NCBI GenBank assembly: GCA_036676985.1
Contig: JAKFBU010000023.1
Location: forward strand, 1 to 64,000
Direction: 5' to 3'
DNA length: 64,000 nt
From: Candidatus Sericytochromatia bacterium
Lineage (GTDB): Bacteria; Cyanobacteriota; Sericytochromatia; S15B-MN24; UBA4093
Below, piece after piece: positions 7,942 through 34,601 of this stretch. The position numbers and the translations under genes are program-made. Within the stretch, counting starts at the first letter, position 1; each line of letters starts with the position of its first letter. The notes below the pieces were generated by a model. It was not told the DNA's origin, did no database searches, and worked only from the letters and a program-made list of their open reading frames with translations.

Positions 7942-7942
7942 G

Positions 7943-18935: not shown

Positions 18936-21221
18936 ATGCTCTCGGCTCGCTACGCCGCGCTTGGCAAATGGATCATCCGGTATCGCGGCTGGGTGCTCGC
19001 CTTCTGGCTCATCCTCATCGTGGTCGCCTCCCTGGGCTCCACCCGCGTGACGCAGGTCCTGTCTGGCGGGTCCGGAGCAGTCCCCGGCAGCGGCTCTCAG
19101 CATGTCGAGCAGCTGTTGCACGGCGAGTTCGCGAATCCCTTCACCCACCTGGTGGCCGTGGTCGTCTCCAGCCAGGAGCGCACGCTCGACTCGGCGGAGC
19201 TCCGGACGGCGGTCGAAGACCTCAAGGCCGAGCTACAGGGTCAAAAGGAAGTGGCCCGGGTGCTCGGCCCCGGCGACCAGTCGCCCATCACCCTACAGTC
19301 CGAGAAGGGCGATCGCGCCATCCTGCTCGTGGGCCTCAACGCCAAGGGAGCCACCGAGGCGCTGAACATGATGCCCCGCCTGCGCGAGGTCACCCATGCC
19401 GTCGCGGCCGAGCACCGGAAGACCGACTCCACGCTCCAGGTGGCCGCGACCGGCATGCCGGCCGTCACCTACGACATCAACAAGCACAGCAGCGACGACA
19501 CCTCCAAGGCCGAGGGACGCCTCATCCCCCTGACGATCCTGGTGCTGCTCTTCGCCTTCGGGGGCCTGGTCGCCGCGGGCCTGCCGCTCTTGGTCGGCAT
19601 CGCCGCCACGGTCCTCACCCTGGGCCTCACGTTCGTGCTCGCCCAAAGCGTGGAGCTTTCCATCTACGTGCAGAACGTGGCAAGCATGATTGGGCTGGCG
19701 GTGGGCATCGATTACTCGCTCCTGATGGTTCATCGCTTCCGGCAGGCCCTCCATGCGCACGGGGACGCCCACGAGGCGGTCGTCGAGACCATGCGGACGG
19801 CGGGCGTCGCCATCACCTTCTCGGGCCTGACGGTGCTCATCGGGCTCGGGGCCATGCTGTTCACGCCCCTCTTGGACACCCGATCAGTGGGCCTCGGCGG
19901 CCTCCTGGTCGTCGTGGTCTCGGTGCTCCTGGCCCTGACCCTCTTGCCCGCCGTGCTGTCCATGCTGGGCCACCGGATCGACGCGCCCAAGCGCCTCTCC
20001 GACTGGCTATTGCAGAAGGCGAACCGCCACCAGTGGGAGCGCTGGGTGCGCTACGTGAGCGATCGTCCCATCCGCTCGACCGTGATCAGCCTCCTGGTGC
20101 TCCTTGGCCTGGCGTCGCCTATTCTCAAGCTCGAGCTGGGCTATCCGGACACGGCCCTGTTCCCGCCGTACATGGAGTCGGTGCAAGGGGTCGAGGCCCT
20201 CAACGACATGGGCCTGAGCGGGGCCCTGATCCCCATCTACGCCATCGTGCGCGACCCCGACGAGCCCGTGCTCGGCACCAGGAACCTGGGGGCCATGCTC
20301 AAGCTGAGCGCGGAACTCAAGGCCAACCCGCTCATCGCATCGGTGGCGAGCCCCGTGGACCTCTCGGCCGGCATCAGCCCGCTCCAGTACGCCATGCTGT
20401 ACCAGAACCCCGAGGCCGCGCTGAAGCGCTTCCCGCTGATCCAGGAGATGTTCGTCAGCCGCGATCGCCACATGGCGCTCTTCCAGATCGTGCCCAAGCG
20501 CTCGGCGGACCTACCCGAACTGCGCAAGCTCGCAGCCGACCTGGCCAAGCGCGAGATGCCCGATGGCCTCGAGCTCCTGGTCGGAGGGACGCCCTCCTAC
20601 TACAACGACCACGAGGGGGCGGTGGTCGGCACCTTCCCGTACGTGGCGGGCTTCATCATCCTGACGACGCTGGTGGTGATGGGCCTCGCCTTCCGCTCGG
20701 TGCTCGTGCCCCTCAAGGCCGTGGTCATGAACCTCCTGTCCGTGGGCGCGGGCTATGGGGCGGTCATCGCCGTCTACCACTTCGGCTGGGGGCGGGCGAT
20801 CTTCGGGATGGGTCATGTGACCGAGGCCATGCCGATTCCGGTGCTCATCCTGTTCATGCTCTTCTGCATCGTGTTCGGGCTATCGATGGACTACGAGGTC
20901 TTCCTCATGAGCGCCATCAAGGAGTCCTACGACGAGCACGGGGACAACGCCCGGGCGGTCGTCGAGGGCACGTGCGGCACCGCGCGGCTCATCTCGAGCG
21001 CGGCCCTCATCATGGTGGCGGTGTTCGGGGCGTTCGCCTGGGCGGACTTCGTGATCGTGAAGATGCTCGGCCTGGGGCTCACCGTCGCCGTCCTGGTGGA
21101 CGCCACCTTGATCCGCTTGGTGCTCTTGCCGGCGTTCATGAAGCTCGCGGGCAAGGCGAACTGGTATCCGGGCGATCGCGCGAAAGGCTCTACTCCCGTC
21201 CGAGAACCTGCGGCGGTCTAA
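18936..21221 (+). CDS. MMPL (RND superfamily) lipid exporter
   Basis: GLAVGIDYSLLMVHRFR, FSGLTV, FGLSMDYEVFL and DATLIR motifs, 2 x 6 TM. Start at ATG 18936 after GGAGGAGG. Confidence 0.92.
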   Translation: MLSARYAALGKWIIRYRGWVLAFWLILIVVASLGSTRVTQVLSGGSGAVPGSGSQHVEQLLHGEFANPFTHLVAVVVSSQERTLDSAELRTAVEDLKAELQGQKEVARVLGPGDQSPITLQSEKGDRAILLVGLNAKGATEALNMMPRLREVTHAVAAEHRKTDSTLQVAATGMPAVTYDINKHSSDDTSKAEGRLIPLTILVLLFAFGGLVAAGLPLLVGIAATVLTLGLTFVLAQSVELSIYVQNVASMIGLAVGIDYSLLMVHRFRQALHAHGDAHEAVVETMRTAGVAITFSGLTVLIGLGAMLFTPLLDTRSVGLGGLLVVVVSVLLALTLLPAVLSMLGHRIDAPKRLSDWLLQKANRHQWERWVRYVSDRPIRSTVISLLVLLGLASPILKLELGYPDTALFPPYMESVQGVEALNDMGLSGALIPIYAIVRDPDEPVLGTRNLGAMLKLSAELKANPLIASVASPVDLSAGISPLQYAMLYQNPEAALKRFPLIQEMFVSRDRHMALFQIVPKRSADLPELRKLAADLAKREMPDGLELLVGGTPSYYNDHEGAVVGTFPYVAGFIILTTLVVMGLAFRSVLVPLKAVVMNLLSVGAGYGAVIAVYHFGWGRAIFGMGHVTEAMPIPVLILFMLFCIVFGLSMDYEVFLMSAIKESYDEHGDNARAVVEGTCGTARLISSAALIMVAVFGAFAWADFVIVKMLGLGLTVAVLVDATLIRLVLLPAFMKLAGKANWYPGDRAKGSTPVREPAAV

Positions 21222-21230
21222 CGTAGGGAA

Positions 21231-21263
21231 AAAGGGCCGGCTGTCCTAGACAGCCGGCCCTTT
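21231..21263. terminator. Bidirectional intrinsic terminator
   Basis: AAAGGGCCGGCTGTC-CTA-GACAGCCGGCCCTTT between convergent genes. Confidence 0.85.
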
Positions 21264-21280
21264 GAGCTGTTTGCTCTATT

Positions 21281-21589
21281 TTAGAACGGCCACCACCAGG
21301 CCTTGGCGGGCTCCTTGTGCGGGCGCTTGAAATACGCCCGACCGCCCACTACGGCCACGAGCTCCCAGCCCTCCTTGCCGAGATCGGCGAGGCGCTTGCC
21401 ATCCAGGCCGCTCATGACGGCGTTGGCCACCATGCCGGGGATCCCGTCCACCCCGCCCGTGACGAAGGTCTCGATGCGGTACTCCCACTTCTGGCCATCG
21501 TAGGGCGCGGGCTTTGGCGCCTCCTCGGCCGCAAGGGCCGGCGAGGCCAGGCTCAACAGCAACAGCGAGACGATCAACGCGCGCATCAT
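21281..21589 (-). CDS. Exported DUF4177-like small protein
   Basis: Signal peptide ending ALA. KWEYR...LADLGKEGWELVAV...YFKRP pattern. Confidence 0.7.
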   Translation of the reverse strand: MMRALIVSLLLLSLASPALAAEEAPKPAPYDGQKWEYRIETFVTGGVDGIPGMVANAVMSGLDGKRLADLGKEGWELVAVVGGRAYFKRPHKEPAKAWWWPF

Positions 21590-21598
21590 GGACGCTCC

Positions 21599-22855
21599 TT
21601 AGGGCAGCTTGTAGTCGGGGGGCAGCGAGATGGGGCCGGTGCCCGTGCGCGGGCGATTGCGGCCCAGGCGCTCGTGGGCCTGGACGAAGTGATCCATGGC
21701 GATCGCCGAGTACGTCGAGATGTCGAGGCACATGGCCGCCGCCGCCACGATCTCGGCGAGCTTCTTGGCCTTGCCCGTGCCCACGCAATCGAGCATCTCG
21801 AGAGCCGCCTTCTGGCTGGGCAGACCCGTGCCGCCGCCGATGGTCGCCACGACCACGCTCGGCAGCATGACCCCGAAGTACATGCCCTCCTCCGTCAGGC
21901 GGAAGTTGATCTGGCCCTGGCTCGACTCGGGAACCGTCGCGATGTCCTGGCCCGTCGCCGTGAAGAGGGCCGCGACCACGTTCGCGAAGTTGACGTTGCA
22001 GCCGAGCATGTGGGCGGCCCAGGTGGGGCCGACTCCGGCCACCAGGGCCTCGAACAGGTCCTCCGGCGTGACCCGGAGCACCCGCTGCATGACCTCGCGC
22101 TTGAGGTGCACCTCGGCCACCACGCGCTTGCCGCGCAGGCTCGTGGTGTAGGTCATGGCGTTGACCTTCTTCTCGGCGCCCAACTGCGAGTCCACGTACC
22201 AGTCGATGAAGTGGATGCCCGTCTGGCGCGGGAACTCGAGCTGGATCCAGTGGCAAGCCGCCCAGCTGCACTTCATGACCATGTTGGCGCCGTAGGCGTC
22301 GCCCGTGTAGTAGGACAGCTGGATGCAGACGGTGTCGCCCAGGATGACCGGATCGACCTTGATGAGCTTCGCCGTGCGCGACTGGCTCTCGGCGATGGAC
22401 CGCAGGCCCGCCTCGTTCTGCCGGATCCAGTCGGCGAAGGCCACGGCGTCGGTCAGGGTCTCGAAGGTGAACATGGGCGCGCGCATCATCTGGTCGCTCA
22501 CGACTCGCACGTTCGCCCCGCCGGACTCCGTGACCGCACGCATGCCGCGGGTGCACGAGGCGACGAGCGCGCCCTCGGTCGTGGCGAGCGGCACGTAGAA
22601 GGTGCCGTTGGCATGCTCGCCGTTGATCACGAGGGGACCCGCCACGCCGATGGGTACCTGCACGAAGCCGATGTGGCTCTCGATGTTGCCCTTGAAGATC
22701 TCGGCCCCCGGACGGGTGTCGGCGTTGAGTGGCGCGAGGTTGGCCCCGGTCGTCTCCTCCACCCAGCTTCGCCGGTTCGCGAGCGCCTCCTCCGAGTAGA
22801 CCTTCTTGTACGGCACCGAGGGTGCGAACTGGGTCTCGGCTGGCGAATGGTCCAT
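21599..22855 (-). CDS. HMG-CoA reductase family protein (class I-like)
   Basis: PIGVAGPL, PLATTEGALVAS, TGDAYGANM (canonical DAMGMN), ATGQD, GGGTGLP and C-terminal AHERLGR. Confidence 0.88.
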   Translation of the reverse strand: MDHSPAETQFAPSVPYKKVYSEEALANRRSWVEETTGANLAPLNADTRPGAEIFKGNIESHIGFVQVPIGVAGPLVINGEHANGTFYVPLATTEGALVASCTRGMRAVTESGGANVRVVSDQMMRAPMFTFETLTDAVAFADWIRQNEAGLRSIAESQSRTAKLIKVDPVILGDTVCIQLSYYTGDAYGANMVMKCSWAACHWIQLEFPRQTGIHFIDWYVDSQLGAEKKVNAMTYTTSLRGKRVVAEVHLKREVMQRVLRVTPEDLFEALVAGVGPTWAAHMLGCNVNFANVVAALFTATGQDIATVPESSQGQINFRLTEEGMYFGVMLPSVVVATIGGGTGLPSQKAALEMLDCVGTGKAKKLAEIVAAAAMCLDISTYSAIAMDHFVQAHERLGRNRPRTGTGPISLPPDYKLP

Positions 22856-22975
22856 GTGGGCAAGTTCCTTCTCTCGTCCGGACGCACGGCCCGGCAGGGT
22901 CCGCTCTCTTATACCCGATTCGAGATCGCTGGATAACGGGACGTTTTTCCCTTCTCCCAGCGCCCTAGCGTAGGC

Positions 22976-23932
22976 CTACACCCATTGTCCACCGAGCCGC
23001 AGGCTCAGATCGAGGATTACCGCAAGGTACAGGACCAGGGTGAAGGCCTCCACGAAGGGCCGGAGCTTGGAATTCTTCGGGGACTGTACGGCGAGCCAGC
23101 GCCCGAAGCCGAACATGGCGTAGACATAGCCCGCGCCCGCCGCGACGACGAAGGGCAGCGAGAGGCCGAGCTGCTTCGCGAAGGCCAAGGCGAGCAGGGC
23201 CGAGACGGTCACGCCGGCCATCGGCACGAGCGCAGCCGCCCGGGGGCCGAAGATCTGCGAATACGTGATGTAGGCGTCCTCCTCCTCCTTGGCCCGGATC
23301 TTGCGGCTGGTCTCCCAGCTGAAGACCAGTAGCCAGAACATGGCGAGGCCGTACCAGACGCCGGGCCTTAGGTCCGAAAGACCGAGGCCCTGCACTTCCA
23401 TGAAGACCGACAGCACGTACAGGTGCGTGAAGAAGACGATCGGGTTGTGGGTGAAAAGGGTGAGGACCAGGTTCTTGCGGTGCAGATCCGGCAGGAAGAA
23501 GTACTTGAACATCAAGAGGGCGTAGGCCATCAGGATGAGGTAGCCGATGAGCCCCTTGCCCATCACGAGGTTCAGGACCGTCATGAAGGCGACCAGGCTC
23601 CAGCCGAGGATCTTGAGGTCGCTCGTCAGCACCCGCCCCGACGGCAAGGGGCGGTGAGGAAAGAGCTGGCAGTCGTGCTCGTAGTCCTTGAACTCGTCGA
23701 ACACGCGCATGAGGAGCGTGAAGGCCGCGAGCGTGAAGGCGCCGAGGATGCTGTGCCAGGAATAGCTCAGGGGCTTGGCGCCGTACAGGGCCTGCAGCAG
23801 CATGTAGTACCCGAAGAAGGACATGAACGAGTAGGGCACGTTCACATGCAGCGGGTACATCTCGACCAGGTAGGTCCAGAGGCGCGACCCGAAGGTCGTG
23901 GGGGAGTGGGTCGGGGCGTTGGTCGTGCTCAT
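22976..23932 (-). CDS. UbiA-superfamily membrane prenyltransferase-like protein
   Basis: About 9 TM. RVFDEFKDYEHD...RPLPSGRV first acidic motif, WETSRK...TYS second region. Confidence 0.75.
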   Translation of the reverse strand: MSTTNAPTHSPTTFGSRLWTYLVEMYPLHVNVPYSFMSFFGYYMLLQALYGAKPLSYSWHSILGAFTLAAFTLLMRVFDEFKDYEHDCQLFPHRPLPSGRVLTSDLKILGWSLVAFMTVLNLVMGKGLIGYLILMAYALLMFKYFFLPDLHRKNLVLTLFTHNPIVFFTHLYVLSVFMEVQGLGLSDLRPGVWYGLAMFWLLVFSWETSRKIRAKEEEDAYITYSQIFGPRAAALVPMAGVTVSALLALAFAKQLGLSLPFVVAAGAGYVYAMFGFGRWLAVQSPKNSKLRPFVEAFTLVLYLAVILDLSLRLGGQWV

Positions 23933-23939
23933 GCGCTCC

Positions 23940-24848
23940 TCATCGATAGCCGATCCGGCTGCCGGCCTTGACCTGGACCTCCAGGCCCATCGCCGAATCC
24001 CGGATCAAATCTTCGTCGAACCGTACGGCTCCCGGCTCGAACAGCATCACCAGGGTCGAGCCGCCGAAACGGAAGTAGCCCTTCTCGTCGCCCCGCCGCA
24101 CCTCGCGGCCGGGCTCGAAGGTCTGGAGAATCGTCCCCACGCAGATGGCGCCCACCTCCACGTAGCCGATCCGGCCAAAGTGACGGGACGAAAGCTCCGT
24201 CACCTGGCGCTTGTTTCGGCAGTAGACGTCCGGCACCTTCGCGAGCGCGATGGGGCTCACCGAGTGGTACCGCCCCCGGATCTCCCGGGGCCGGGAAGGG
24301 GTGCCGTCGTCCGGGAAGTGAAAGCGGTGGTAATCGTAGGGCGCGAGGCGGACGATGAGGGCCGAGCCCCCTCGAAACGGCTCCGCTGCAGACTTCGAGG
24401 CGAGCAGATCTTCGAGGGTCAGGCGGGCGCCCTTCACCGGCAGGCGCACCCCGTCGTCCAGTCCCGGGAAGACCAGTACCTTGCCGTCGGCAGGCGAGGA
24501 AAAGGCATGGGGGTCGTCGCAGAACGGGCGCGCCCCGGGCTTCAGCCTCCGGGAGAAGAAGGCGTTGAAGCTGGGGTAGGCCGAGGGCGGCAGCTCGGAC
24601 TCGTCGGGATCGATGCGGTGGGTCGCCACGAAGTCCGGGATCTTGGCGCGGGTCAATGGGTGGTCTTGCAGCTTGCCGAACAGCCAGCAGAAGGCCCGTC
24701 GGTTCAAGAGCGTCGCGAAGATGCGCGAGCCGACAGGATCCTCGTAGAACCAGCGCAGCTCCCGCTCGGAGAAGATGGTCTCCTCGACGAGCGTGCCGGA
24801 GGCGCGATCGCGGTACTGGACCTGGGTCCGCGGCCTCGTCTCGATCAT
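23940..24848 (-). CDS. psd: Phosphatidylserine decarboxylase proenzyme
   Basis: SFNAFFSRRLKPGARP, SPADG, RLAPYDYHRFHFP and GYFRFGGST cleavage motif. Confidence 0.92.
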   Translation of the reverse strand: MIETRPRTQVQYRDRASGTLVEETIFSERELRWFYEDPVGSRIFATLLNRRAFCWLFGKLQDHPLTRAKIPDFVATHRIDPDESELPPSAYPSFNAFFSRRLKPGARPFCDDPHAFSSPADGKVLVFPGLDDGVRLPVKGARLTLEDLLASKSAAEPFRGGSALIVRLAPYDYHRFHFPDDGTPSRPREIRGRYHSVSPIALAKVPDVYCRNKRQVTELSSRHFGRIGYVEVGAICVGTILQTFEPGREVRRGDEKGYFRFGGSTLVMLFEPGAVRFDEDLIRDSAMGLEVQVKAGSRIGYR

Positions 24849-25960: not shown

Positions 25961-26592
25961 ACCGCGTGTCCCGTGGCGATCGCCCAGGCGTAAACGCCCG
26001 TGAGGACCAGACAGATCCCCGAGAAGATGCCGTACCAGATGCCACGCGGCTTGATGATGCGCAGGCCCGAGACCATCAGGGCCGCGAGCAGCAGGTACAG
26101 GCCCGCGAGGCCCCAGCGTACGGCCTCTGCCGGCAGGGCCAGGGTCGCAAGGAAGGCGATGGGAATGAAGAGGGCCGCGTAGGTCACGGGCATGCCCGTG
26201 AAGTAGCGCTCGCTGCCTTCGGAAGCCATGCCCGCCGCGTTGAAGTAGGCGAGCCGCATGGCGGCTGCGCCCACGTAGAGCATCAACAGCACCACGGCGG
26301 CCGGGTGCCGGAGCCCGTAGCAGTAGGCAAAGACCGTCGGGCCGAAGCCGAACGAGCAGACATCCACGAGGCTGTCCAGGTGCTTTCCGACCTCCGCCTG
26401 GAGCTCCGTGCGCCGGACCTTGCGGGCCACGAAGCCGTCGAAGAGATCCGTGATGCCCGCGTACATCATGCACAGGATGGCCGCGTAAAACTGGCCCCGC
26501 ACGGCAAAGGTCGCCGAGAGGAAGGTGAGCATGAGGCCCGCCAGCGTCAGGGCGTTGGGGAGGTTCAATTGGCGCAGGATAGGACTAGACAT
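25957..26592 (-). CDS. pssA: CDP-alcohol phosphatidyltransferase (PssA-like)
   Basis: PNALT, DLFDGFVAR...GKHLDSLVDVCSFG, RLAYFN, FTGMPVT. Confidence 0.85.
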   Translation of the reverse strand: MSSPILRQLNLPNALTLAGLMLTFLSATFAVRGQFYAAILCMMYAGITDLFDGFVARKVRRTELQAEVGKHLDSLVDVCSFGFGPTVFAYCYGLRHPAAVVLLMLYVGAAAMRLAYFNAAGMASEGSERYFTGMPVTYAALFIPIAFLATLALPAEAVRWGLAGLYLLLAALMVSGLRIIKPRGIWYGIFSGICLVLTGVYAWAIATGHAV

Positions 26593-27664: not shown

Positions 27665-27666
27665 CG

Positions 27667-28572
27667 CTAGCTCCCTCCCAACAAGCGCGCCACGCCGTAG
27701 AAGACGGGCGCGGTAAAAAGTAGGCTGTCGAAGCGATCCAGCACTCCGCCATGCCCGGGTAGCACGTGGCCGAAATCCTTCACCCCGACCTCCCGCTTGA
27801 TGGACGAGGCCAACAGATCACCAATGCCCGCGAACAGGGAGACGCCGCCCGCCACGGCCATGGCGGCGCCTGGCGACCATTCGGGCACCAGGAAGCGCAT
27901 GAGGTAGCCGAGCACGAGGCAGGAGAAGAGGCCGCCGATCGTGCCGCCCCAGGTCTTGTTAGGGCTGATGTCCGGCCAGATGGGCGTCTTGCCGAACAGC
28001 CGCCCCAGGCCCTCCGAGAGCCCGTCATTGGCCATCAGCAGCAGGAACATGAACGCCAAGGCCCCGTAGGATTCGGCCCCTAGCAAGAGGAAGGTCCCTA
28101 GAGGCAGGGTGATGAAGAGCATGCCGAAAGCCGTCGCGAGGAGGCCATGGAGTGCCGGTGGGCGGCGCTGGATCAGCATGGGCAAGGCGAAGGCCGACCA
28201 GGTGGCGATCGCCACCCCCGTCACAAGCGTCAAGGGCCCGCCGACGAGACCGCCCAGCGTCCCCAGGGCGCCGAGCAACGTCACGAGGGCGGGGTGCGCG
28301 ATCGCTCCGTAGCGCCCGGCGATCGCCCGCAAGAGCTCCAGCCAGCCCCGGTAGGCGAGGAACAGAACCACGGGCAGGAGCGTAAACCGGCCCATCGCGC
28401 CTGCCAGGAGGACGAGGGCCAGGAGGCCGATGTGGACGCCGAACTTGAGCCAGATGTCGCGGAGCTTGGCCGGGTCGGGCTTTCGCACGGCCCCGATGGC
28501 CGAGACGACGAAGACGCCGAAGAGGGTCAGGCCGCAGATGATCGAAAGGACGGGGGTCGAAAGGGGATGCAA
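27667..28572 (-). CDS. cdsA: Phosphatidate cytidylyltransferase (CdsA family)
   Basis: ISPNKTWGG, GDLLASSIKR..GVKDFG..LPGHGGVLDRFDS. TTG start after GAGGAG. Confidence 0.88.
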   Translation of the reverse strand: MHPLSTPVLSIICGLTLFGVFVVSAIGAVRKPDPAKLRDIWLKFGVHIGLLALVLLAGAMGRFTLLPVVLFLAYRGWLELLRAIAGRYGAIAHPALVTLLGALGTLGGLVGGPLTLVTGVAIATWSAFALPMLIQRRPPALHGLLATAFGMLFITLPLGTFLLLGAESYGALAFMFLLLMANDGLSEGLGRLFGKTPIWPDISPNKTWGGTIGGLFSCLVLGYLMRFLVPEWSPGAAMAVAGGVSLFAGIGDLLASSIKREVGVKDFGHVLPGHGGVLDRFDSLLFTAPVFYGVARLLGGS

Positions 28573-28583
28573 GCCGTTCTCCT

Positions 28584-29342
28584 CTAGGCCGGAACCATGC
28601 TCTGCCAGGCGCCCAGCTTGGTCTTCACGACGGTCCTGATCTCCTCATCGGCGCCGAGCAGGGCCATTGTGCTTCGCACCTGCGCGAAGACGTCGCGCCC
28701 GATCACGACTCCGTAGTGCTCGTCCTTGTCGCTCTGGCCATAGCGGGCGATCACCCGCGCGACCCTGGGGAACTGGCGCTCGGGATCCTCGGCGATCATC
28801 CGGGCGATCACATCGTTGTAGTATGCGGCGTGGAAGAACTCGTCCGCGGCGATGAGCGCGAACAGCTTGGCCCCCACGGGCTCGCCCACGTACTTGCCCG
28901 CGATGCGGTACCAGACGGCCGTCTCGATCTCGCTGATCCAGGCGAGGACGAGCTCCTCCAGGAGGTCCGCCTCCGACCACTGCGAGTCCTTGAGGTCAGC
29001 GCTGTTCTGGTAGCCGTGCTGGATGGCAACGATCTCGGACTCCTCGATGGGTAAGCCCACCGCCTCCGAGTAGCGCAGCATGGCGTAGTGGTGCTTGTTC
29101 TCCTCGTAGAGGTTCATGACCTTCCACCCGATCAGCCACGGCAGGCCCCGATGGGCCTGGAAGAACCGCGCGCAGTTCTGGTACGAGAAGCTCTCGACCA
29201 ACGACGCGATCTTGATGGGCTGCACGAGGTCGCGGTTGGCGAGTGCTGGGTCGATCTCGGACCACGCGACGTCCTGCTCGAGGTTCCAGCGGCGCTCCTC
29301 TCCGAGGGCATGGTACTTCTGGTAAAGGTCGTAGTACTGCAT
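28584..29342 (-). CDS. Ferritin-like diiron protein (acyl-ACP desaturase-like)
   Basis: RWNLEQDVAW N-terminus. E...EENKH and E...DEFFH diiron ligand pairs. Confidence 0.75.
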   Translation of the reverse strand: MQYYDLYQKYHALGEERRWNLEQDVAWSEIDPALANRDLVQPIKIASLVESFSYQNCARFFQAHRGLPWLIGWKVMNLYEENKHHYAMLRYSEAVGLPIEESEIVAIQHGYQNSADLKDSQWSEADLLEELVLAWISEIETAVWYRIAGKYVGEPVGAKLFALIAADEFFHAAYYNDVIARMIAEDPERQFPRVARVIARYGQSDKDEHYGVVIGRDVFAQVRSTMALLGADEEIRTVVKTKLGAWQSMVPA

Positions 29343-29354
29343 GACACCGCCTCC

Positions 29355-32075
29355 CTAGGCCGACGGCTCGGAGTCTAGCCGTACGGTGCCCGCCCGGCCG
29401 TCCATCTCCACCCACTGGCCGTCCTGTACCCGCCGAATCAGGTTCTTGACCCCGATGATCGTCGGCAGTCCCATCTCCCGGGCGACCACCGCCGCATGTG
29501 ACAGCAGGCTGCCCCGCTCGATCAACAGCCCGCTCGCCGAGGGATAGAGGGGCACCCAGCCCGGATCCGTCCGCTCGGTCACGAGGATCTCGCCGTTGAG
29601 GCGCATGTCGTCGTCCGGCTTGAGGATGACCCTGACCTTCGCCGCCACCTGGCCCGGGCAGCAGCTGATGCCCTGCAGCACCGGGCCGTCGTCGTCCGAG
29701 GGCGCATTGCGCCTGGGATCGTAGAGCTGATCGCCGTAGTAGACCGCACCCGTCGTGACCAGGCGATCGTCGACCGGCAGCTCCTCGTAGCGGGCAAACT
29801 CCGCCCGGCGCATGGTCGCGAGCGCCTTGAGGTCGGTGCAGGTCGACCGCCCCTCGACGAAGGAAAAGAGGTCGTAGAAGTCCAGGTAGAAGACGTCGTC
29901 CACCTGATCGATCAGGCCCAGGGCATGCAGTTGAACGCCCATGCCCTGGAAGATCTCGCGCACGAGGCCAAAGGCCTTGGTGCGGGCCATTCGCAGGTTC
30001 TCGCGGTTGCGCACCCCCTTGCGGGCATTCTTGAGGACCCAGCCGTAAACCAGGCGCCGGACCGGTCGGCCGGCAAGCCTCTCGCCGGCCTTGCGCTCGG
30101 CCTCCTCGCGCACCTTCCGCTCCTTGGCCTCCATGTCGCCGAGATCCAGGGACGCGAGCGCCAGGTAGTTCTTGATCATCGAGAAGACGAAGCTCGGGTC
30201 CTCTTGAAGATTTTTGACCTCGAGCTTCAGCTCGCCCATGCAGCGGTAACCGAACCGGTGGAGGTAGTCCTGGAGCTGGGCCCGGAAGTCAGCGAAGCGC
30301 TCTTCGTCCAGCGCCCTGGTGATCTCGGCCTCGGGCATCCGGAGGAAGAGCTCCTTGAGAGCCTCGTCCGAGCGCACGGCGATCGCCAGCCGGATGATGG
30401 CCTTCGCGGGCTCGGTGCTCTCGAGGCCGCCCTCGCCGCACAGGAGGTCGTTCTGCAGGGACCCCGTCTCGTCCACGTTCCACATCGCCGTGAGCTTCTT
30501 GAGCAGGCCGTAGAAGACCATGGCGTAGAAGTCGTTGGTCATGGGGGCGCGCCACTGCCACAGGAGCTGGTTCTCGATGGCGCGGTAGGCGTCCAGGATG
30601 GCGTCCGGGTCCATGGCCGCGTAGTCCCGACCGCGATACTCCTCGAAGACCCGGTTGAAGTGGCGGGTGAAGCGCTCCACGTCGTTGTCCCAGTCCAGGA
30701 AATTGCCCCAGATCTTGGAGACCAGGCGCGCAATCTTCGGGCCGCCCACGAAGAGGCGTTCGAACAGGGTGAAGGACCGTTTGTCGTAGTCCTTCTGCTC
30801 CTGGACCCCGATCATCGTGTCGAAGAAGTCCTTCATGTACTCGTAAGCGGGCAGGAAGGTGATGATCTGGTAGTAGTTGTCCAGGTTGTAGAAGATGCGG
30901 CCGTTCAGGAGCCCGAGCAGGTTGGCGAAGACCGCGTTGTGCTCGCGCAGCACCTGGTGCGGGATGCCGAAGGCGTCGAACAGGACCTGGTAGGCCACCT
31001 CGTACATCCGGTTCACGAACGAGAAGGTCAGGGGCGTGGTGACGCCGTAGTAGCTCTCGGCGATGTTCGAGTTGTCCCACAGCCGGCGCTTGCCCCGGGG
31101 CCTGGGCTTGAGGCTCGTGATGGGGCGCGCCTGAAGCAGGTAGATCGCGCCGTCGCGCAGCGTCCACTCGATGTCCTGCGGGGCACCGAACTTGTCGGCG
31201 ATGCGATCGCCCAGCGCCACGAGCTCCTTGATCTGCGCCTCGGTCAACGATGGCAAGGCCTGATGCTCCTCGGGGACGGAGGACTTGATCGTCCCGTGGC
31301 CTCGGACCTCGTCCAGCACGATCCGCTCGCGCTTGGTGGCAACCTCGGCCTCCACCCGACCCCTCGGCTTGTCCACGATCCAGTTGTCGGCGTCCAGCTC
31401 GCCGGAGACCAGGCCCTCGCCCAAGCCGTAGGTCGCCGAAAGCACGGCCTCGTCCCACTTGCTCGAGATGGGGTTGGCCGTGAAGAGGACGCCCGAGACG
31501 TCGCCGAAGACCATCTCCTGGAGGACCACCGCGATGCGGATGTCCTCGAGGCCGATGCCGTTTTGTAGGCGGTAGCTGAGCGCTCGCTCGGAGAAGGCCG
31601 AGGCCCAGCAGCCCCGGATGGCCTCGAGCAGGGCCTCCTCACCCTTGACGAAGAGGAAGGTATCCATCTGACCAGCAAAGGACTGGGTGGCCGAGTCCTC
31701 GCCGACGGCACTCGAGCGCACGGCCACGAGGCCGCCCTTGAACTGGCGTTCGTAGGCCTCGAGGAGCTCCGCGCGCACGGATGAGGAGAAGGGGACCTGG
31801 CGGATGCGATCGCCGATGATGAGGCTCGTCTGGCGGACGTGGGCGGGGTTGGCGGGATCGAGTCGGGACAGGTGATCCCGGACCTCATCGAGGACTCCGG
31901 CGGCCTCCAAGGTCGAGAGGAATACCCCCGTCGGAATCACCGACCATTCGGGGACCGCGAAGCCGAACTGCATCAAGCGCGCGAGGTTCGCGGCCTTGCC
32001 TCCGAGGGCGGCGGGATCCGCGTCTTCCGCGGCTCGCGCCGAGAGGAGGGTAGCCGAGACGGTCGTTACGGTCAT
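29355..32075 (-). CDS. PEP-utilising dikinase-type enzyme (Rph / PigC / PPS-like architecture)
   Basis: LGGKAANL, VAVRSSAVGEDS..SFAGQ and QDIEW...LQARPIT ATP-grasp. Central substrate domain. C-terminal swivel domain TDPGW...GSLLSHAAVVAREMG. Confidence 0.9.
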   Translation of the reverse strand: MTVTTVSATLLSARAAEDADPAALGGKAANLARLMQFGFAVPEWSVIPTGVFLSTLEAAGVLDEVRDHLSRLDPANPAHVRQTSLIIGDRIRQVPFSSSVRAELLEAYERQFKGGLVAVRSSAVGEDSATQSFAGQMDTFLFVKGEEALLEAIRGCWASAFSERALSYRLQNGIGLEDIRIAVVLQEMVFGDVSGVLFTANPISSKWDEAVLSATYGLGEGLVSGELDADNWIVDKPRGRVEAEVATKRERIVLDEVRGHGTIKSSVPEEHQALPSLTEAQIKELVALGDRIADKFGAPQDIEWTLRDGAIYLLQARPITSLKPRPRGKRRLWDNSNIAESYYGVTTPLTFSFVNRMYEVAYQVLFDAFGIPHQVLREHNAVFANLLGLLNGRIFYNLDNYYQIITFLPAYEYMKDFFDTMIGVQEQKDYDKRSFTLFERLFVGGPKIARLVSKIWGNFLDWDNDVERFTRHFNRVFEEYRGRDYAAMDPDAILDAYRAIENQLLWQWRAPMTNDFYAMVFYGLLKKLTAMWNVDETGSLQNDLLCGEGGLESTEPAKAIIRLAIAVRSDEALKELFLRMPEAEITRALDEERFADFRAQLQDYLHRFGYRCMGELKLEVKNLQEDPSFVFSMIKNYLALASLDLGDMEAKERKVREEAERKAGERLAGRPVRRLVYGWVLKNARKGVRNRENLRMARTKAFGLVREIFQGMGVQLHALGLIDQVDDVFYLDFYDLFSFVEGRSTCTDLKALATMRRAEFARYEELPVDDRLVTTGAVYYGDQLYDPRRNAPSDDDGPVLQGISCCPGQVAAKVRVILKPDDDMRLNGEILVTERTDPGWVPLYPSASGLLIERGSLLSHAAVVAREMGLPTIIGVKNLIRRVQDGQWVEMDGRAGTVRLDSEPSA

Positions 32076-32238
32076 GGAGTCCTCTGCAAAGCCGGGAAGC
32101 GAGAATCGTTAGAGTTCTTTTACCCTCCGGCCGAACGTAATTTCATGTCGTCCTCGGCAAGGCAAATATGGCGCTCGCCTGCAAGGGTATACGGGTTGGT
32201 AGCGCTCGAAGACCCGACGCCGGACCAGGAAGGACCCC

Positions 32239-33498
32239 ATGAGCATTCCGGAATCCGATTTGATCCGCCTCTTGGGCGCACTGCTCGCGCTCTTGATCTC
32301 TTCCCAGGTGCTCGGGGGGCTCTTCCAGCGCCTGCGCCAGCCGCGGGTCATCGGGGAGATCTTGGGGGGCCTGTTGTTCGGGCCGACCGTGCTCGGGACC
32401 CTGCTTCCTCAGGCCTACGACGCCATGTTCGGCTCGGGCCTCGCCCAGAAGCCCGTGCTCGGTTTCGTCTTCTGGCTGGGACTGCTCCTCTTGATGTTTT
32501 GCTCGGGGCTCGAGACCCAGAACGTCGTGAACCGCTCGGAGTGGCGCACGACCCTCTGGCTGACGGGCGCCGGCACGTTCCTTCCCCTCTTGGCGGGCTT
32601 CTGGCTCGCGGGCGCCTTCGACTTCTCGCCCTTCTTCGGGCCCAAAGCCACGGCCCTCAGCTTCGGGCTCCTGCTTGCCAACGCCATCGCCGTGACCTCC
32701 ATCCCCGTCATCAGCAAGATCCTGTTCGACGTGGGCCTCACGGGCACACCGTTCGCCCGGGTGGTGCTCACCACCGCGATGATCGAGGACATGCTCCTCT
32801 GGGTGCTCCTGTCGGTCACGCTCGGGCTCGCCAACGCCGAGCATGCGAGCGCATGGGAGCTCGTCCGGGGCGTGGTGGTGACCATGTCCTACTTCGCCTT
32901 CTGCCAGGTACTGGGACACCGGATCTATGACGGCATCTCGCGGGCTCGGTGGAACCCCTTCAAGACCTCGGCCGACGGTATGCCGCTCCTCATGGTGTTT
33001 CTCCTGGCGGTGCTGCTCGCTTATCTGCTTGGCGTGAACCCCATCTTTGGGGCCTTTCTCGCCGGACGGGTGGTGGCGAATTCCGAGCGCATCGCGGACG
33101 CCACCAAGGAGCAGGTCAAGGGCTTCAGCTTCGCCTTCTTTATCCCCGTCTACTTCGCGAGCGTCGGCCTCAAGCTCGACCTGCGCCACGACTTCGACGT
33201 CCTCTTCTTCGCGGCCTTCGTGCTCGTCGCCTGCGCCATCAAGGCGAGCTCCATGTACCTGGGAGCCCGCCTGGCGGGCCAGGGGCACGCTCCGGGGCTG
33301 AACCTGGCCATCGCCATGAACGCGCGGGGCGGCCCGGGCATCGTGCTCGCGACCGTGGCCCTGGAGGCGGGGCTCGTGACGAACAGCTTCTACGCCGTCT
33401 TGATCCTGCTCTCGCTCGTCACGTCCCAGCTGGCGGGGTGGTGGCTGCAGCGGGTGATGCGGCGATCGCCCAAGGGTCTCGAGCTCTCGCCGCTCTGA
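32239..33498 (+). CDS. Cation:proton antiporter (CPA2/Kef-type)
   Basis: QPRVIGEILGGLLFGPTVLG, TSIPV..KIL, FFIPVYFASVG, MNARG. About 12 TM. Confidence 0.88.
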   Translation: MSIPESDLIRLLGALLALLISSQVLGGLFQRLRQPRVIGEILGGLLFGPTVLGTLLPQAYDAMFGSGLAQKPVLGFVFWLGLLLLMFCSGLETQNVVNRSEWRTTLWLTGAGTFLPLLAGFWLAGAFDFSPFFGPKATALSFGLLLANAIAVTSIPVISKILFDVGLTGTPFARVVLTTAMIEDMLLWVLLSVTLGLANAEHASAWELVRGVVVTMSYFAFCQVLGHRIYDGISRARWNPFKTSADGMPLLMVFLLAVLLAYLLGVNPIFGAFLAGRVVANSERIADATKEQVKGFSFAFFIPVYFASVGLKLDLRHDFDVLFFAAFVLVACAIKASSMYLGARLAGQGHAPGLNLAIAMNARGGPGIVLATVALEAGLVTNSFYAVLILLSLVTSQLAGWWLQRVMRRSPKGLELSPL

Positions 33499-33570
33499 CA
33501 TTCGGGCGAATGCTGGTTTTCGGGTCGACTTTGGGAATAAGAGGCGTGTAGCCACTCGAAGAGGAATCGC

Positions 33571-34479
33571 ATGGGGACCATCCGCGTCATCGTCAACCGG
33601 CATGCCCGCAACGGCGGCAAGAGCAGCATGCTCAAGCGCGTCGAGCGCGAGCTCAAAGACGTCGAGTATCAGCTCATCATCCCCGACACCTACGAGGACC
33701 TGGTGGCGAGCGCCAAGCAGGCCGTCGAGGACCAGGTGGAGAAGGTGATCGTGGTGGGCGGCGACGGCACCATCAACGCCGTCGTCAACCAGATCGCCAA
33801 CAGCCCGGTCGCCCTCGGCATCATCCCCGCCGGCACCGCCAACGACCTGGCCACCCACCTGGGCATCCCCAAGGACGTCCGCAAGGCCTGCGCCATCATT
33901 CGACGCGGCAGCGTGCGCGAGATGGACCTCGTCGAGATCAACGGCCGCTACTTCATCACCGCGGGCGGCATGGGCGTGGTGAGCGACACGGCCGTGGGCG
34001 TCAACAAGCTCAAGGCGACCGACGGCTTCGTCAGCAAGGCGACCCGCAAGCTCGGGAGCCTCGTTTACGTGCTCTACAGCTTCGGCTTGCTCGCAGGCTC
34101 CAAGAAGATCGTCAGCGACCTCGAGGTCTCGGTAGACGGCCAGCCGCAGGGCACCATCCCCTCCATCGCCCTTTTCGTCAACAACCAGCCCTCCATCGGC
34201 AAGACGGTCGTGCCCTATCCCGAGGCCAAGACGGACGACGGAGAGCTCGGCCTGTGCGTCATGCGCAAGCGCAGTCGTCTGGGGGCCATCCTCACCGTCA
34301 TCCTGATGAGCATGAAAGGGTCGCACACCCGCCGCAAGGAGATCAGCCTCCTGGCGGGCAAGCGCATCGAGATCAAGAGCCCGACCCGCAAGACGTTTAT
34401 CGGAGACGGCGAAGTGCTCGCCCACACGCGCAAGTTGACCCTCAACGTGGTCCCAAAGGCCCTGAGGGTGCTTTCCTAA
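33571..34479 (+). CDS. Diacylglycerol/sphingosine kinase family lipid kinase (YegS/DagK)
   Basis: VVGGDGT, GIIPAGTANDLA, DDG and GDGE motifs. Confidence 0.9.
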   Translation: MGTIRVIVNRHARNGGKSSMLKRVERELKDVEYQLIIPDTYEDLVASAKQAVEDQVEKVIVVGGDGTINAVVNQIANSPVALGIIPAGTANDLATHLGIPKDVRKACAIIRRGSVREMDLVEINGRYFITAGGMGVVSDTAVGVNKLKATDGFVSKATRKLGSLVYVLYSFGLLAGSKKIVSDLEVSVDGQPQGTIPSIALFVNNQPSIGKTVVPYPEAKTDDGELGLCVMRKRSRLGAILTVILMSMKGSHTRRKEISLLAGKRIEIKSPTRKTFIGDGEVLAHTRKLTLNVVPKALRVLS

Positions 34480-34601
34480 CGAAGTTTTGACCCGTCTAAA
34501 ACACGTGCTTATCAGCTTTGAGGCCATTCCCGGGTAAATATTCGGTGTGGAGGCGTTAATGCCGCCATAAGACTCCCGCCGAAAGGAGGCCTTGGAATGT
34601 C

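Follow-up and report, generated by a model that had tools for sequence, protein, structure and literature searches.

The window, a stretch of 64,000 nucleotides from a soil bacterium related to the cyanobacteria, contains a tight operon that is one form of a widespread gene set. Eight tightly packed genes on the minus strand (22976-32075) either overlap or are spaced by 2-12 nt, as indicated by open reading frames, GC3 frame analysis, and junction sequences. Genes for an MMPL transporter, an antiporter, and a lipid kinase flank the operon. Families were assigned with Pfam and NCBIfam, as follows:

29355-32075, minus strand: Rph/PigC-type swivel-His ATP-dependent phosphotransferase (dikinase), 906 aa; PPDK_N, E 2e-81; PEP-utilizers mobile domain, E 1e-22
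28584-29342, minus strand: soluble ferritin-like di-iron protein (FA_desaturase_2-like), 252 aa; PF03405, E 6e-7, 29 bits (cut-off 22.7)
27667-28572, minus strand: CdsA-type cytidylyltransferase, 301 aa, about 8 predicted membrane segments; PF01148, E 6e-46
26585-27664, minus strand: membrane di-iron desaturase/hydroxylase, 359 aa; PF00487, E 7e-32
25957-26637, minus strand: PssA-type CDP-alcohol phosphatidyltransferase (serine), 226 aa (211 aa from ATG 26592); PF01066, E 2e-17
24845-25960, minus strand: tandem (double) GNAT acyltransferase, 371 aa; PF00583, E 2e-5, C-terminal half only
23940-24848, minus strand: phosphatidylserine decarboxylase (Psd), 302 aa; PF02666, E 1e-55
22976-23932, minus strand: UbiA-fold membrane transferase, DGGGPS-like, 318 aa; NCBIfam PRK13592, E 3e-47, below cut-off
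21599-22855, minus strand: FcrA-type (class-I-HMGR-derived) putative fatty acyl-CoA reductase, 418 aa; PF00368, E 3e-106
21281-21589, minus strand: small protein with an N-terminal hydrophobic segment, 102 aa, weak DUF4177/Sp36 likeness; membership doubtful
18729-21221, plus strand: MMPL/RND-type transporter, 830 aa, convergent on the operon; PF03176, E 4e-72
32239-33498, plus strand: CPA2-type cation/proton antiporter family protein, divergent, link uncertain; PF00999, E 3e-45
33571-34479, plus strand: YegS/DAGK-family lipid kinase, link uncertain; PF00781, E 8e-30; TIGR00147 above cut-off
59882-61069, minus strand: second cassette, DUF3419/BtaA-like (Pfam, NCBIfam)
61118-61804, minus strand: second cassette, metallo-beta-lactamase (Pfam, NCBIfam)
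61805-62830, minus strand: second cassette, OlsE-like hydroxylase (Pfam, NCBIfam)
62845-63870, plus strand: second cassette, UbiA paralogue (Pfam, NCBIfam, genome tblastn)

Specifically, the dikinase gene is followed by a 12-nt gap, the gene of the soluble di-iron protein by an 11-nt gap, and the CdsA gene by a 2-nt gap. The PssA gene overlaps the desaturase/hydroxylase gene by 53 nt, or by 8 nt with the RBS-preceded ATG at 26592 as its start. Both the PssA/GNAT and the GNAT/Psd junctions are ATGA overlaps, and 7 nt separate Psd from the UbiA-like gene. A gap of 120 nt precedes the HMGR-like gene, and the 102-aa gene lies next to it. According to the junction sequences, cassette and head-group genes are interleaved along the operon. 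The same order, with 45 differences and no gaps, is found across 18700-34600 on a 19,143-base contig that the same study obtained from another sample, and several gene junctions are bridged by short near-identical contigs of a second study. The preliminary description had reported eight overlapping or closely spaced minus-strand genes from 32075 to 22976, and the reading frames, GC3 analysis, junctions, and second-sample contig confirm this. Two of its details need correction: the MMPL gene starts near 18729 instead of 18936, with the 830-aa frame conserved at residues 2-825 in a relative, and the DUF4177 assignment is a weak one, at Pfam E 0.01 and NCBIfam Sp36 E 8e-6, the small gene having no counterpart at the locus of the closest syntenic relative, G003.

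CdsA, PssA, and Psd all contain their family domains and catalytic motifs. CdsA has the C-terminal sequence SxxKRxxGxKDxGxxxPGHGGxxDRxD, which we take to be the CdsA signature (PROSITE pattern). PssA carries the motif D-x2-DG-x2-AR...G-x3-D-x3-D with an 11-residue spacer, and its top NCBIfam matches, to archaetidylserine synthase and pssA, all stay under the cut-off. Psd carries the self-cleavage motif FGGST. In the 100%-complete host genome, Psd is the single PF02666 match, PF01148 matches CdsA and two further genes, and a single paralogue of PssA exists. The idea of a "private" cdsA/pssA/psd set is overstated, and the set is not clearly private: CdsA has three copies and PssA-like genes number two, but the one Psd groups in a tree with the ordinary PssA-adjacent Psd of order-mates and cannot be separated from it; that these are the only copies in the genome, a finding the preliminary description had held to count against its own reading, is true for Psd only. 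Similar clusters without the cassette occur in relatives (PssA-CdsA-Psd in G019 and PssA-Psd pairs in genus g7), and the three operon enzymes may perform ordinary PE synthesis. Within family f1, only the two genomes with the complete operon, G000 and G003, yielded a Psd; G006 (81% complete) has part of a UbiA orthologue where a contig ends.

The UbiA-like protein gives no match to PF01040, even with E values up to 5 allowed. The gathering score of PF01040 is passed by the paralogue in the window and by the L056 and L031 homologues, and is missed by the L033 homologue (22.8 vs 34.2 bits). The sole match of the UbiA-like profile in the PDB is DGGGPS (6m31; E 0.002), which is also the top fold match of the AlphaFold model (pLDDT 94; E 3.5e-6, TM 0.63/0.70), with further matches to 4od4 (E 1e-3) and the membrane phosphoribosyltransferase 8j8j (E 1.4e-2). 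The protein is thus predicted by its model to have the UbiA membrane fold, and the original label "UbiA-like" holds through PRK13592 and the fold, though not through PF01040. R76, D79, E80, K82, D83, D87, E207, R210, K211, and E218 are invariant in 39 sequences. The first Asp-rich motif, (N/D)DxxDxxxD, is present as an invariant D79-E80-F-K-D83-Y-E-H-D87, with Glu replacing the second Asp. The second Asp-rich motif, DxxxD in canonical UbiA enzymes, is absent from the alignment, and W206, E207, R210, K211, and E218 are conserved there (ExxRK...E).

In the PDB, the dikinase best matches the rifampin phosphotransferase from Listeria (5fbs, E 3e-85). Its architecture is that of Rph and PigC, namely a PPDK_N ATP-grasp domain and a C-terminal mobile His domain with the catalytic His (GSLLSH(860)AAVVARE), and no PEP-utilizers_C barrel. 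The protein scores below the equivalog cut-offs of Rph (389 vs 999 bits), PigC (375 vs 1300 bits), and RedH (431 vs 1350 bits). It exceeds the cut-off of the legacy model NF004881 ("phosphoenolpyruvate synthase") but does not have the domain architecture of PpsA with its PEP-binding C-terminal domain.

The HMGR-like protein retains the catalytic residues E94, K229, D304, and H394 in the alignment, and has Asp222, Phe390, and Ala273/Val272 at the equivalents of human Ser684, Leu862, and the HMG-binding Lys. This Lys, numbered Lys795 in the text of PMC11948995, was located here by counting 32 residues upstream of the catalytic Asp on the alignment. In 48 aligned cassette-linked homologues, the Ser684 position is Glu in 45, Asp in two, and a gap in one, the Leu862 position is Phe in all 48, and the Lys position is Ser/Ala/Thr in 46. 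As described in the text of PMC11948995, the FcrA signature comprises the same kinds of change, i.e., Ser684 to an acidic, Leu862 to a bulky, and the HMG-binding Lys to a small residue. The gene looks like a putative fatty acyl-CoA reductase carrying this signature, consistent with the earlier idea of a thioester-to-alcohol reduction, though on another substrate than that of HMGR. The protein resembles FcrA of Ca. Promineifilum breve and Natronomonas pharaonis, as presented in PMC11948995, in its class I HMGR fold, catalytic residues, and three pocket changes, and in the co-existence of a separate true HMGR in the genome. It differs in having Asp at the position that is Glu in 45 of the 48 cassette homologues, Phe where N. 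pharaonis has Trp, and no N-terminal Lad or ACP domain. PMC11948995 proposes wax esters, and possibly ether lipids through PlsC-like or AGPS enzymes, as FcrA products; no wax synthase was found in the host genome, in a search whose controls gave no match either. The term "UbiA" is absent from the main text of PMC11948995.

The true HMGR of the host is a class II enzyme on contig C14, in a mevalonate operon beside mevalonate kinase; IspH was not found in the host genome, which uses the mevalonate pathway. In two Bacteroidota genomes, the cassette HMGR-like gene is the sole PF00368 match, IspH is present, and no mevalonate kinase scores above cut-off. Among 41 genomes of the relatives set, the FcrA-like gene is present in 12, and all 12 have a gene of the UbiA-like family.

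The distribution of the cassette was followed in the best 80 of 263 confirmed relatives of the UbiA-like protein from a genome contig search, a set of loci picked by UbiA-like similarity in which many are broken by contig ends and kin are not independent. In these best 80, the UbiA-like gene has nearby a dikinase (67/80), any CTP-transferase-like gene (60/80), a BtaA-like DUF3419 gene (56/80), tandem GNAT homologues (55/80), a fatty-acid CoA ligase (51/80), an HMGR-like gene (46/80), and PssA and/or Psd (9/80). PssA/Psd and DUF3419 occur together in none of the best 80. Gene order is conserved and the cassette occurs in many phyla, in agreement with the synteny expected by the preliminary description: G003 has the full operon, G018, G026, and G010 have partial forms, and G037 and G028 have the UbiA-dikinase pair. 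Linkage of PssA/Psd to the cassette, inside it or next to it, is seen both in the host order and in MAGs labelled Bacteroidota, Gemmatimonadota, Bdellovibrionota-type, and Ca. Endobugula. In cassettes of other phyla, a CarS-like enzyme takes the place of CdsA, and CarS-like, PssA-like, and Psd genes lie inside the Gemmatimonadota and Ca. Endobugula MAG cassettes. In G010, PEP mutase and TPP decarboxylase genes adjoin the UbiA orthologue. No paper on the cassette was found in the literature.

This comparison shows that the DGGGPS-like membrane transferase of UbiA fold and the swivel-His dikinase of Rph/PigC type form a co-inherited core, usually joined by a predicted CTP-dependent CdsA/CarS/polyprenol-kinase-like enzyme, tandem GNAT, and FcrA-type reductase. 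The amine-bearing head group would come from one of three swappable modules, i.e., PssA plus Psd, a BtaA-like DUF3419 protein, or PEP mutase plus phosphonopyruvate decarboxylase. The host genome itself holds two cassette versions about 30 kb apart. By its gene content, the second (59882-63870) is a predicted phosphorus-free head version, and continues past the window end, where genes for a dikinase paralogue, a TPR protein, and a fatty-acid CoA ligase follow. Its identity to the first is 31-32% for UbiA and 50% for the dikinase (genome tblastn).

The AlphaFold model of the GNAT protein (pLDDT 94) has as its top folds the tandem GNATs 2wpw, MshD, glucosamine N-acetyltransferase, FemX, and Sba18, with TM of 0.4-0.6; in G028 and G037 the tandem GNAT gene adjoins PssA-Psd. 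The membrane desaturase/hydroxylase has the His boxes HEGAH, HLNHH, and HLEHH, and its homologues linked to the cassette reach 73% in G003, 59% in G018, and 49% in a Bacteriovoracaceae MAG. The soluble di-iron protein has two ExxH motifs, gives no informative match to PDB sequences, and among the compared relatives' loci is present only in G003 (80% identity).

We slightly favour a reading in which a widespread bacterial lipid cassette, so far uncharacterised by experiment, occurs here in its phosphoserine/phosphoethanolamine-head version, with the following mechanism. The FcrA-type enzyme would convert long-chain acyl-CoA to fatty alcohol, and the dikinase would phosphorylate this alcohol or a lipid alcohol derived from it. 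The UbiA-like enzyme would move the activated alkyl chain onto a glycerol-type backbone, creating an ether bond. CdsA would form the CDP-lipid, PssA would add serine, and Psd would yield the ethanolamine form. The tandem GNAT would N-acylate the head-group amine, the two di-iron enzymes would desaturate or hydroxylate a chain, and MMPL would move the product outward. Our best guess for the product is a fatty-alcohol-derived, probably ether-linked, N-acylated aminophospholipid; we infer this product, its ether bond, the desaturation target, and export from the gene set, and the order of phosphorylation and chain transfer, the acceptor, and the ether bond are least certain. UbiA enzymes usually ionise allylic diphosphates, and a saturated alkyl phosphate is a poor donor; we know of no precedent for a UbiA enzyme using one. 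The presence of the dikinase in the DUF3419 version, where the need for a lipid phosphate is not obvious, also counts against this mechanism, as do the altered second Asp-rich motif of the UbiA-like protein, the grouping of the operon's Psd with the ordinary Psd of the lineage, and the cassette-free CdsA/PssA/Psd clusters of relatives. Of the non-standard lipid proposed earlier, with an ether or N-acyl linkage and alkyl or prenyl chains, part is supported, and a prenyl backbone is unlikely.

The archaeal archaetidylethanolamine route (GGGPS, DGGGPS, CarS, archaetidylserine synthase, and archaetidylserine decarboxylase) follows the same order of chemistry as the operon, namely a UbiA-fold lipid transferase, CTP activation, serine transfer, and decarboxylation. 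The parallel drawn earlier is real, because the UbiA-like model is closest to archaeal DGGGPS. The CarS-like enzymes in place of CdsA in other phyla and the sub-threshold archaetidylserine synthase matches of PssA are further similarities. Unlike in the archaeal route, no GGGPS/PcrB (PF01884) was found in the host genome, in a search whose controls matched in 7/14, and the chain seemingly comes from fatty alcohol instead of prenyl diphosphate. The Rph-type dikinase and tandem GNAT have no archaeal-route counterpart, and the second Asp-rich motif of the UbiA-like protein is altered. Like Rph and PigC/RedH, the dikinase combines an N-terminal ATP-grasp domain, a central domain for the substrate, and a swivel His domain at the C-terminus; unlike them, it always accompanies a UbiA-like membrane enzyme in a lipid operon. 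The aerobic ether-lipid/plasmalogen route comprises fatty acyl-CoA reductase, AGPS, a PE head group, and the PEDS1/CarF desaturase. Its logic is similar, from fatty alcohol through ether bond and phosphoethanolamine head to a membrane di-iron desaturase, whereas here the UbiA-like protein and dikinase would act in place of the flavoenzyme AGPS, and the desaturase is a PF00487 member. ElbD and AGPS are mentioned in the text of PMC11948995. The DUF3419/BtaA-like alternative head module, including that of the host's second cassette, recalls BtaA/BtaB betaine-lipid (DGTS) synthesis; unlike in DGTS synthesis, the gene is embedded in a UbiA-dikinase-GNAT cassette in which no BtaB methyltransferase was identified, and its substrate is presumably not ordinary diacylglycerol.

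Three other readings were weighed. It is unlikely, though chemically coherent, that the locus makes a glycerol-free two-chain lipid, in which a fatty alcohol phosphorylated by the dikinase would be CMP-activated by CdsA, turned into alkyl-phosphoserine by PssA and alkyl-phosphoethanolamine by Psd, and N-acylated by GNAT, with no glycerol ether and another role for the UbiA-like protein, e.g., DPPR-synthase-type phosphotransfer. Kinase, CTP-transferase, CDP-alcohol transferase, decarboxylase, and N-acyltransferase are chemically complete without glycerol, G037 and G028 have only UbiA, dikinase, and CarS-like genes together while GNAT travels with PssA-Psd, and 8j8j is among the fold matches. 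However, this leaves the most conserved cassette gene without a needed role, DGGGPS and not the phosphoribosyltransferase is the best fold match (E 3.5e-6 vs 1.4e-2), and CdsA and PssA are not known to us to take simple alkyl phosphates. An ordinary PE operon with passengers, in which CdsA/PssA/Psd make diacyl PE and the rest acts elsewhere, e.g., in later PE modification, seems quite unlikely. The sole genomic Psd with its ordinary grouping and the cassette-free clusters of G019 and genus g7 are consistent with it, but genes of the two sets alternate along the operon with translational coupling, PssA/Psd are linked to the cassette in several phyla besides the host order and never accompany DUF3419 in the best 80 of 263 loci, and two additional CdsA copies are in the genome.

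We consider it very unlikely that a true HMGR boosts mevalonate flux here and that the UbiA-like protein adds prenyl chains to give an archaetidylethanolamine-like lipid. The mevalonate pathway without a detected IspH in the host genome, the CarS-like cassette enzymes elsewhere, and DGGGPS as nearest structure agree with such an isoprenoid product. Against it, the three HMG-pocket determinants are all altered toward FcrA, a class II HMGR is already within the mevalonate operon, Bacteroidota with the MEP pathway have the cassette HMGR-like gene as an orphan, fatty-acid CoA ligases belong to the usual cassette content (51 of those best 80 loci), and PcrB/GGGPS was not found in the 100%-complete genome (controls 7/14, as above).

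The divergent position of the antiporter and lipid-kinase pair is as first described, but its membership in the system has almost no comparative support. No conserved neighbour of the lipid kinase was found in the relatives' loci, the G003 contig stopping short of that point, and the antiporter was not found at the G018 locus. The antiporter is 39.6% identical to one inside the Bacteriovoracaceae MAG cassette, compared with at most 26% to its own-genome paralogues. MMPL has the same convergent position in G003 (67% identity), and a different MMPL lies inside the cassette of a Gemmatimonadota MAG.

The operon is real and conserved, and comparison of its predicted proteins with those of other genomes indicates that it is a new head-group version of a hitherto undescribed lipid cassette. 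It lies on contig C23 of the 4.68-Mb genome G000 (79 contigs, 100% complete, 5% contaminated, about 67% G+C). Genes in the window were placed by six-frame ORFs, third-position G+C and junction sequences.

Genes of the operon and its flanks
29355-32075, minus strand: dikinase
28584-29342, minus strand: ferritin-like di-iron protein
27667-28572, minus strand: CdsA
26585-27664, minus strand: membrane desaturase/hydroxylase
25957-26637, minus strand: PssA
24845-25960, minus strand: tandem GNAT
23940-24848, minus strand: Psd
22976-23932, minus strand: UbiA-like protein
21599-22855, minus strand: HMGR-like gene, 120 nt past the UbiA-like gene
adjoining the HMGR-like gene, minus strand: 102-aa gene, weak DUF4177 call
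18729-21221, plus strand: MMPL gene, convergent on the operon
divergent from the operon: CPA2 antiporter and YegS-type lipid kinase

Within the eight-gene operon, the gaps are 12, 11, 2 and 7 nt, two junctions are ATGA overlaps, and the desaturase/PssA overlap is 8 or 53 nt. Another sample yielded a 19,143-base contig that spans 18700-34600 with 45 differences and zero gaps, and short contigs of a second study bridge several junctions. The eight overlapping or closely spaced minus-strand genes of the preliminary description are thus borne out. Its HMGR-like, convergent MMPL and divergent antiporter and kinase flanks also stand, with the MMPL start moved to 18729 and the DUF4177 call reduced to a weak one. 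Near-identical DNA is present in soil and groundwater metagenome runs, and the sequencing runs listed with such DNA include no RNA run. An Rfam search of the window gave zero matches, and a promoter/terminator scan of 18.5-34.7 kb gave signal no higher than shuffled expectation.

The operon is shared by relatives. G003, of the same family, has it complete and identically ordered, and the HMGR-like gene and the convergent MMPL gene are there too. The order is dikinase-CdsA-desaturase-PssA-GNAT-Psd-UbiA in G018 and dikinase-PssA-GNAT-Psd-UbiA in G026, so that synteny extends beyond this genome, in partial form also to G037 and G028, where UbiA-dikinase is followed by a CarS-like gene. In the latter two genomes, PssA-Psd-tandem-GNAT triads (loci L131 and L130, respectively) lie apart from the UbiA-dikinase-CarS-like triads. 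Backbone and head-group modules of the cassette can therefore be separated, and the GNAT is tied to the head group. UbiA-like orthologues (39-74% identity) occur in 8 of 40 relatives, and a more distant UbiA paralogue type is far more widespread, with matches at E ≤ 1e-3 in 26 of 41 genomes. Within family f1, Psd is found in one of nine relatives, G003, so G000 and G003 are the two complete-operon genomes, although a partial UbiA orthologue lies at a contig end in G006 (81% complete); seven of the eight relatives without Psd are 83-100% complete.

By scanning one genome for each species with a pattern, we obtained 263 confirmed UbiA-like relatives and kept the best 80 of the 263 loci, a set that is biased to the nearest relatives, contains many loci cut by contig ends and includes non-independent kin. 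A gene was counted as present at 50% query coverage or more.

Gene content of the best 80 of 263 loci
dikinase: 67 of 80
any CTP-transferase-like gene (X, CdsA or CarS-like): 60 of 80
DUF3419 (BtaA-like): 56 of 80
tandem GNAT: 55 of 80
fatty-acid CoA ligase: 51 of 80
membrane protein X, about 220 aa: 50 of 80
HMGR-like: 46 of 80
neither DUF3419 nor PssA/Psd: 15 of 80
PssA and/or Psd: 9 of 80
DUF3419 together with PssA/Psd: 0 of 80

The common form comprises HMGR-like, UbiA, dikinase, DUF3419, X, GNAT and ligase genes. Its carriers are Bacteroidota, the isolates Sphingobacterium alkalisoli and Dyadobacter luticola among them, and records under the labels Melainabacteria/Gastranaerophilales and Kapaibacteria. 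The PssA/Psd form is seen again in MAGs whose labels read Gemmatimonadota, Ca. Endobugula sertula, Bacteroidales and Bdellovibrio-like bacteria; the Gemmatimonadota-labelled locus contains two dikinases, MMPL, PssA-like, CarS-like, UbiA and Psd genes. The gene-neighbourhood comparison thus confirms the expected co-occurrence across phyla. In G010, from the same order, the UbiA orthologue (L022, G010:C230 8670-18999) is flanked by a PEP mutase and a TPP-dependent (phosphonopyruvate-decarboxylase-like) enzyme, together with a PlsC-type acyltransferase, a lipoprotein, a dikinase and a GNAT. PEP mutase and a TPP-dependent decarboxylase carry out the first two steps toward 2-aminoethylphosphonate, and the predicted gene content suggests an aminoethylphosphonate head-group version. 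Because PssA/Psd, DUF3419 and PEP-mutase loci are all seen, one core has three different amine-head modules attached, and comparison of the loci shows a modular architecture for this cassette. Kinship of X with cytidylyltransferases or polyprenol kinases is weak, because its profile-profile alignments to CdsA and CarS-like proteins are non-significant (probability 0.9% and 7.7%, respectively) and few members (3 of 14, best E 1.2e-4) touch PF01148. Part of the case for this kinship is a sharing of D-x2-A-x3-G-K and K-T-x2-G motifs, read by eye.

The window also carries a second cassette, with a DUF3419 head, that continues past its end.

Genes of the second cassette
59882-63870: DUF3419/BtaA-like protein, metallo-beta-lactamase, OlsE-like hydroxylase, UbiA paralogue
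past the window (G000:C23 to about 69400, L114): dikinase paralogue, TPR protein, PRK09274-type fatty-acid CoA ligase

Its UbiA paralogue shares 31-32% identity with the operon copy, and its dikinase paralogue 50%. This paralogue type, not the PssA/Psd operon, is the form in most family-f1 relatives. No X or CarS-like gene was found in the genome. Since the genome has a single HMGR-like gene of the putative FcrA type (class-I-HMGR-derived fatty acyl-CoA reductase), both cassettes may draw on it.

CdsA, PssA and Psd of the operon keep their catalytic motifs. The operon Psd is the only PF02666 match in the genome. PF01148 (CdsA) has three matches, on contigs C30, C27 and C23, and PF01066 also has three, one of which, on C56, is PgsA (above cut-off) and another, on C27, a PssA-like paralogue (38% identity) directly after a CdsA paralogue. 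Divergent from these C27 paralogues is a 604-aa FAD-linked oxidase with FAD_binding_4 and FAD-oxidase_C domains (G000:C27 61122-64698, L115), which might be AGPS-like; NCBIfam gives only partial GlcD-type matches. AGPS is linked to ether lipids in the FcrA paper (PMC11948995). In a Psd tree of 25 rows, the operon Psds of G000, G003, G018 and G026 share an unresolved group with PssA-adjacent Psds of order-mates (families f3 and f4), and cassette-linked Psds of other phyla are placed elsewhere, mixed with non-cassette Psds. Given this scatter, cassette Psds form no separate clade, and the operon appears to have recruited local PE genes. The earlier notion of private head-group copies is accordingly weakened. 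Being the genome's only copy holds for Psd alone, and CdsA and PssA have paralogues.

The HMGR-like gene is read as a putative FcrA-type fatty acyl-CoA reductase. As described in the FcrA paper (PMC11948995), FcrA keeps Glu559, Lys691, Asp767 and His866; Ser684 is replaced by Glu, a bulky residue stands in for Leu862 and a small one for the HMG-binding Lys. Aligned to solved HMGRs, the window protein retains these four catalytic residues, and its three pocket positions are Asp, Phe and Ala/Val. Among 48 aligned cassette-linked homologues, the Ser684 position is Glu in 45, Asp in two and a gap in one, the Leu862 position is Phe in all 48, and the HMG-binding Lys position is Ser/Ala/Thr in 46. 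A second PF00368 gene, on C14, adjoins mevalonate kinase; it is class II (TIGR00532, 429 bits versus a cut-off of 260) and 23% identical to the window protein. The cassette gene is the sole PF00368 match in S. alkalisoli and D. luticola, both of which have IspH and lack a mevalonate kinase scoring above cut-off. An FcrA-like gene occurs in 12 of 41 genomes of the relatives set, all 12 of which also have a UbiA-like gene of the same family, and the two genes are neighbours in several relatives. The assignment follows from the pocket residues, the separate class II HMGR, the orphan status in the two Bacteroidota genomes and the co-occurrence with UbiA. A true HMGR feeding isoprenoid precursors was rejected on the two Bacteroidota genomes and the FcrA-like pocket. 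That reading had gone with the view that Sphingobacteriia use the mevalonate pathway; the two Bacteroidota genomes examined have IspH and no mevalonate kinase above cut-off. The wax synthase PF03007 had no match in the genome, nor in the control genomes.

The predicted model of the UbiA-like protein (pLDDT 94) has M. jannaschii DGGGP synthase as its nearest fold (E 3.5e-6, TM 0.63/0.70), ahead of ApUbiA, UBIAD1 and a membrane phosphoribosyltransferase, and DGGGPS is the sole PDB sequence match of its profile. Like archaeal DGGGPS, it retains the first Asp-rich motif, as DExxDxxxD; unlike DGGGPS, it has a conserved ExxRK...E in place of the second. No PcrB/GGGPS was found in the genome. The dikinase shares the domain architecture of Rph, with the catalytic His. 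The GNAT protein is confidently modelled with a tandem-GNAT fold similar to MshD, the clavulanate tandem GNAT and FemX, a predicted fold that is consistent with an enzyme acylating an amine. Three His boxes are present in the membrane di-iron enzyme and two ExxH motifs in the soluble di-iron protein; PDB sequence searches with both gave no informative match.

In the proposed pathway, the FcrA-type enzyme would turn acyl-CoA into fatty alcohol, the dikinase would phosphorylate this alcohol, and the UbiA-like enzyme would transfer the alkyl chain, perhaps after a second activation by a CTP-dependent enzyme. With that activation, the transfer would resemble phytol salvage, in which VTE5 and VTE6 feed a UbiA-type transferase. 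CdsA, PssA and Psd would then build the head group, the tandem GNAT would N-acylate it, the di-iron enzymes would modify a chain, and MMPL would export the product. The main chemical objection concerns the donor: for a UbiA enzyme, a saturated alkyl phosph(diphosph)ate is a poor one. The joint reading, an alkyl ether route of DGGGPS-like UbiA, FcrA reductase and dikinase with swappable heads and a phosphate-dependent switch, is offered tentatively, as a possibility more doubtful than probable. Non-isoprenoid alkyl ether bonds would be made with both AGPS and plasmalogen synthase dispensable, the amine heads (phosphoethanolamine, homoserine ether and aminoethylphosphonate) would be interchangeable, and a bacterial ether-lipid route assembled from archaeal-type parts would be new. 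As phosphorus and phosphorus-free versions lie 30 kb apart and would share one reductase, the cell could switch the same lipid class between heads by phosphate supply. The FcrA paper (PMC11948995, section 20) suggests that ether-lipid synthesis through PlsC-like or AGPS enzymes may be supplied by some FcrA, and the term 'UbiA' is absent from its main text.

Three rivals to the alkyl ether route are kept. Ordinary PE synthesis with passenger genes would sit with the sole genomic Psd in the operon; on the other side, the separate tree places of other-phyla Psds and the mutual exclusion with DUF3419 argue that the link between cassette and PssA/Psd is functional. An isoprenoid lipid as product would sit with the DGGGPS-like fold and with a genome in which IspH was not found; against it, the HMGR-like pocket fits FcrA. 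A glycerol-free alkyl-phospho-(N-acyl)ethanolamine would keep the reductase, dikinase, head-group and GNAT steps, and the DGGGPS-like fold of the UbiA-like protein speaks against it.

No paper describing a UbiA-dikinase lipid cassette turned up in full-text literature searches, and to that extent the claim that no characterised pathway has this gene set stands. To our knowledge, several bacterial alkyl ether lipid routes are known, yet some producers are left unexplained. Bacterial homologues of archaeal lipid enzymes touch the "lipid divide" debate, and the cassette would couple a DGGGPS-like enzyme with fatty-alcohol chemistry. If true, many "orphan HMG-CoA reductases" would gain a physiological role, as would many genes that carry the annotation "phosphoenolpyruvate synthase" and are not PEP synthases. 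Because the cassette occurs in culturable Bacteroidota (Sphingobacterium, Dyadobacter), direct test by knock-outs and lipidomics is possible.

Elsewhere in the window, a 677-aa protein with PLD-type domains (phospholipase D/cardiolipin-synthase family; 477-2510, minus strand) lies close to the window start, and an N-terminal double zinc ribbon is fused to a class III adenylate/guanylate cyclase domain at 16318-17151 (minus strand). Regions 36804-40103 and 47212-51704 hold an acyl-CoA metabolism set (MaoC/mesaconyl-CoA-hydratase-like proteins, B12-dependent acyl-CoA mutase, zinc-ADH-family enzyme, acyl-CoA dehydrogenase and ETF subunit) that looks similar to parts of an ethylmalonyl-CoA-type pathway. 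Regions 2566-9592 and 55614-59521 encode several large proteins of secreted type, whose repeats are TIG/IPT, Big_2, carboxypeptidase-regulatory-like and NHL/teneurin beta-propeller ones. At 43004-47153, an alkaline/neutral invertase lies near a sucrose-phosphate phosphatase; such sucrose-metabolism genes typify cyanobacteria and plants, and the carrier here is a non-photosynthetic cyanobacterial relative.
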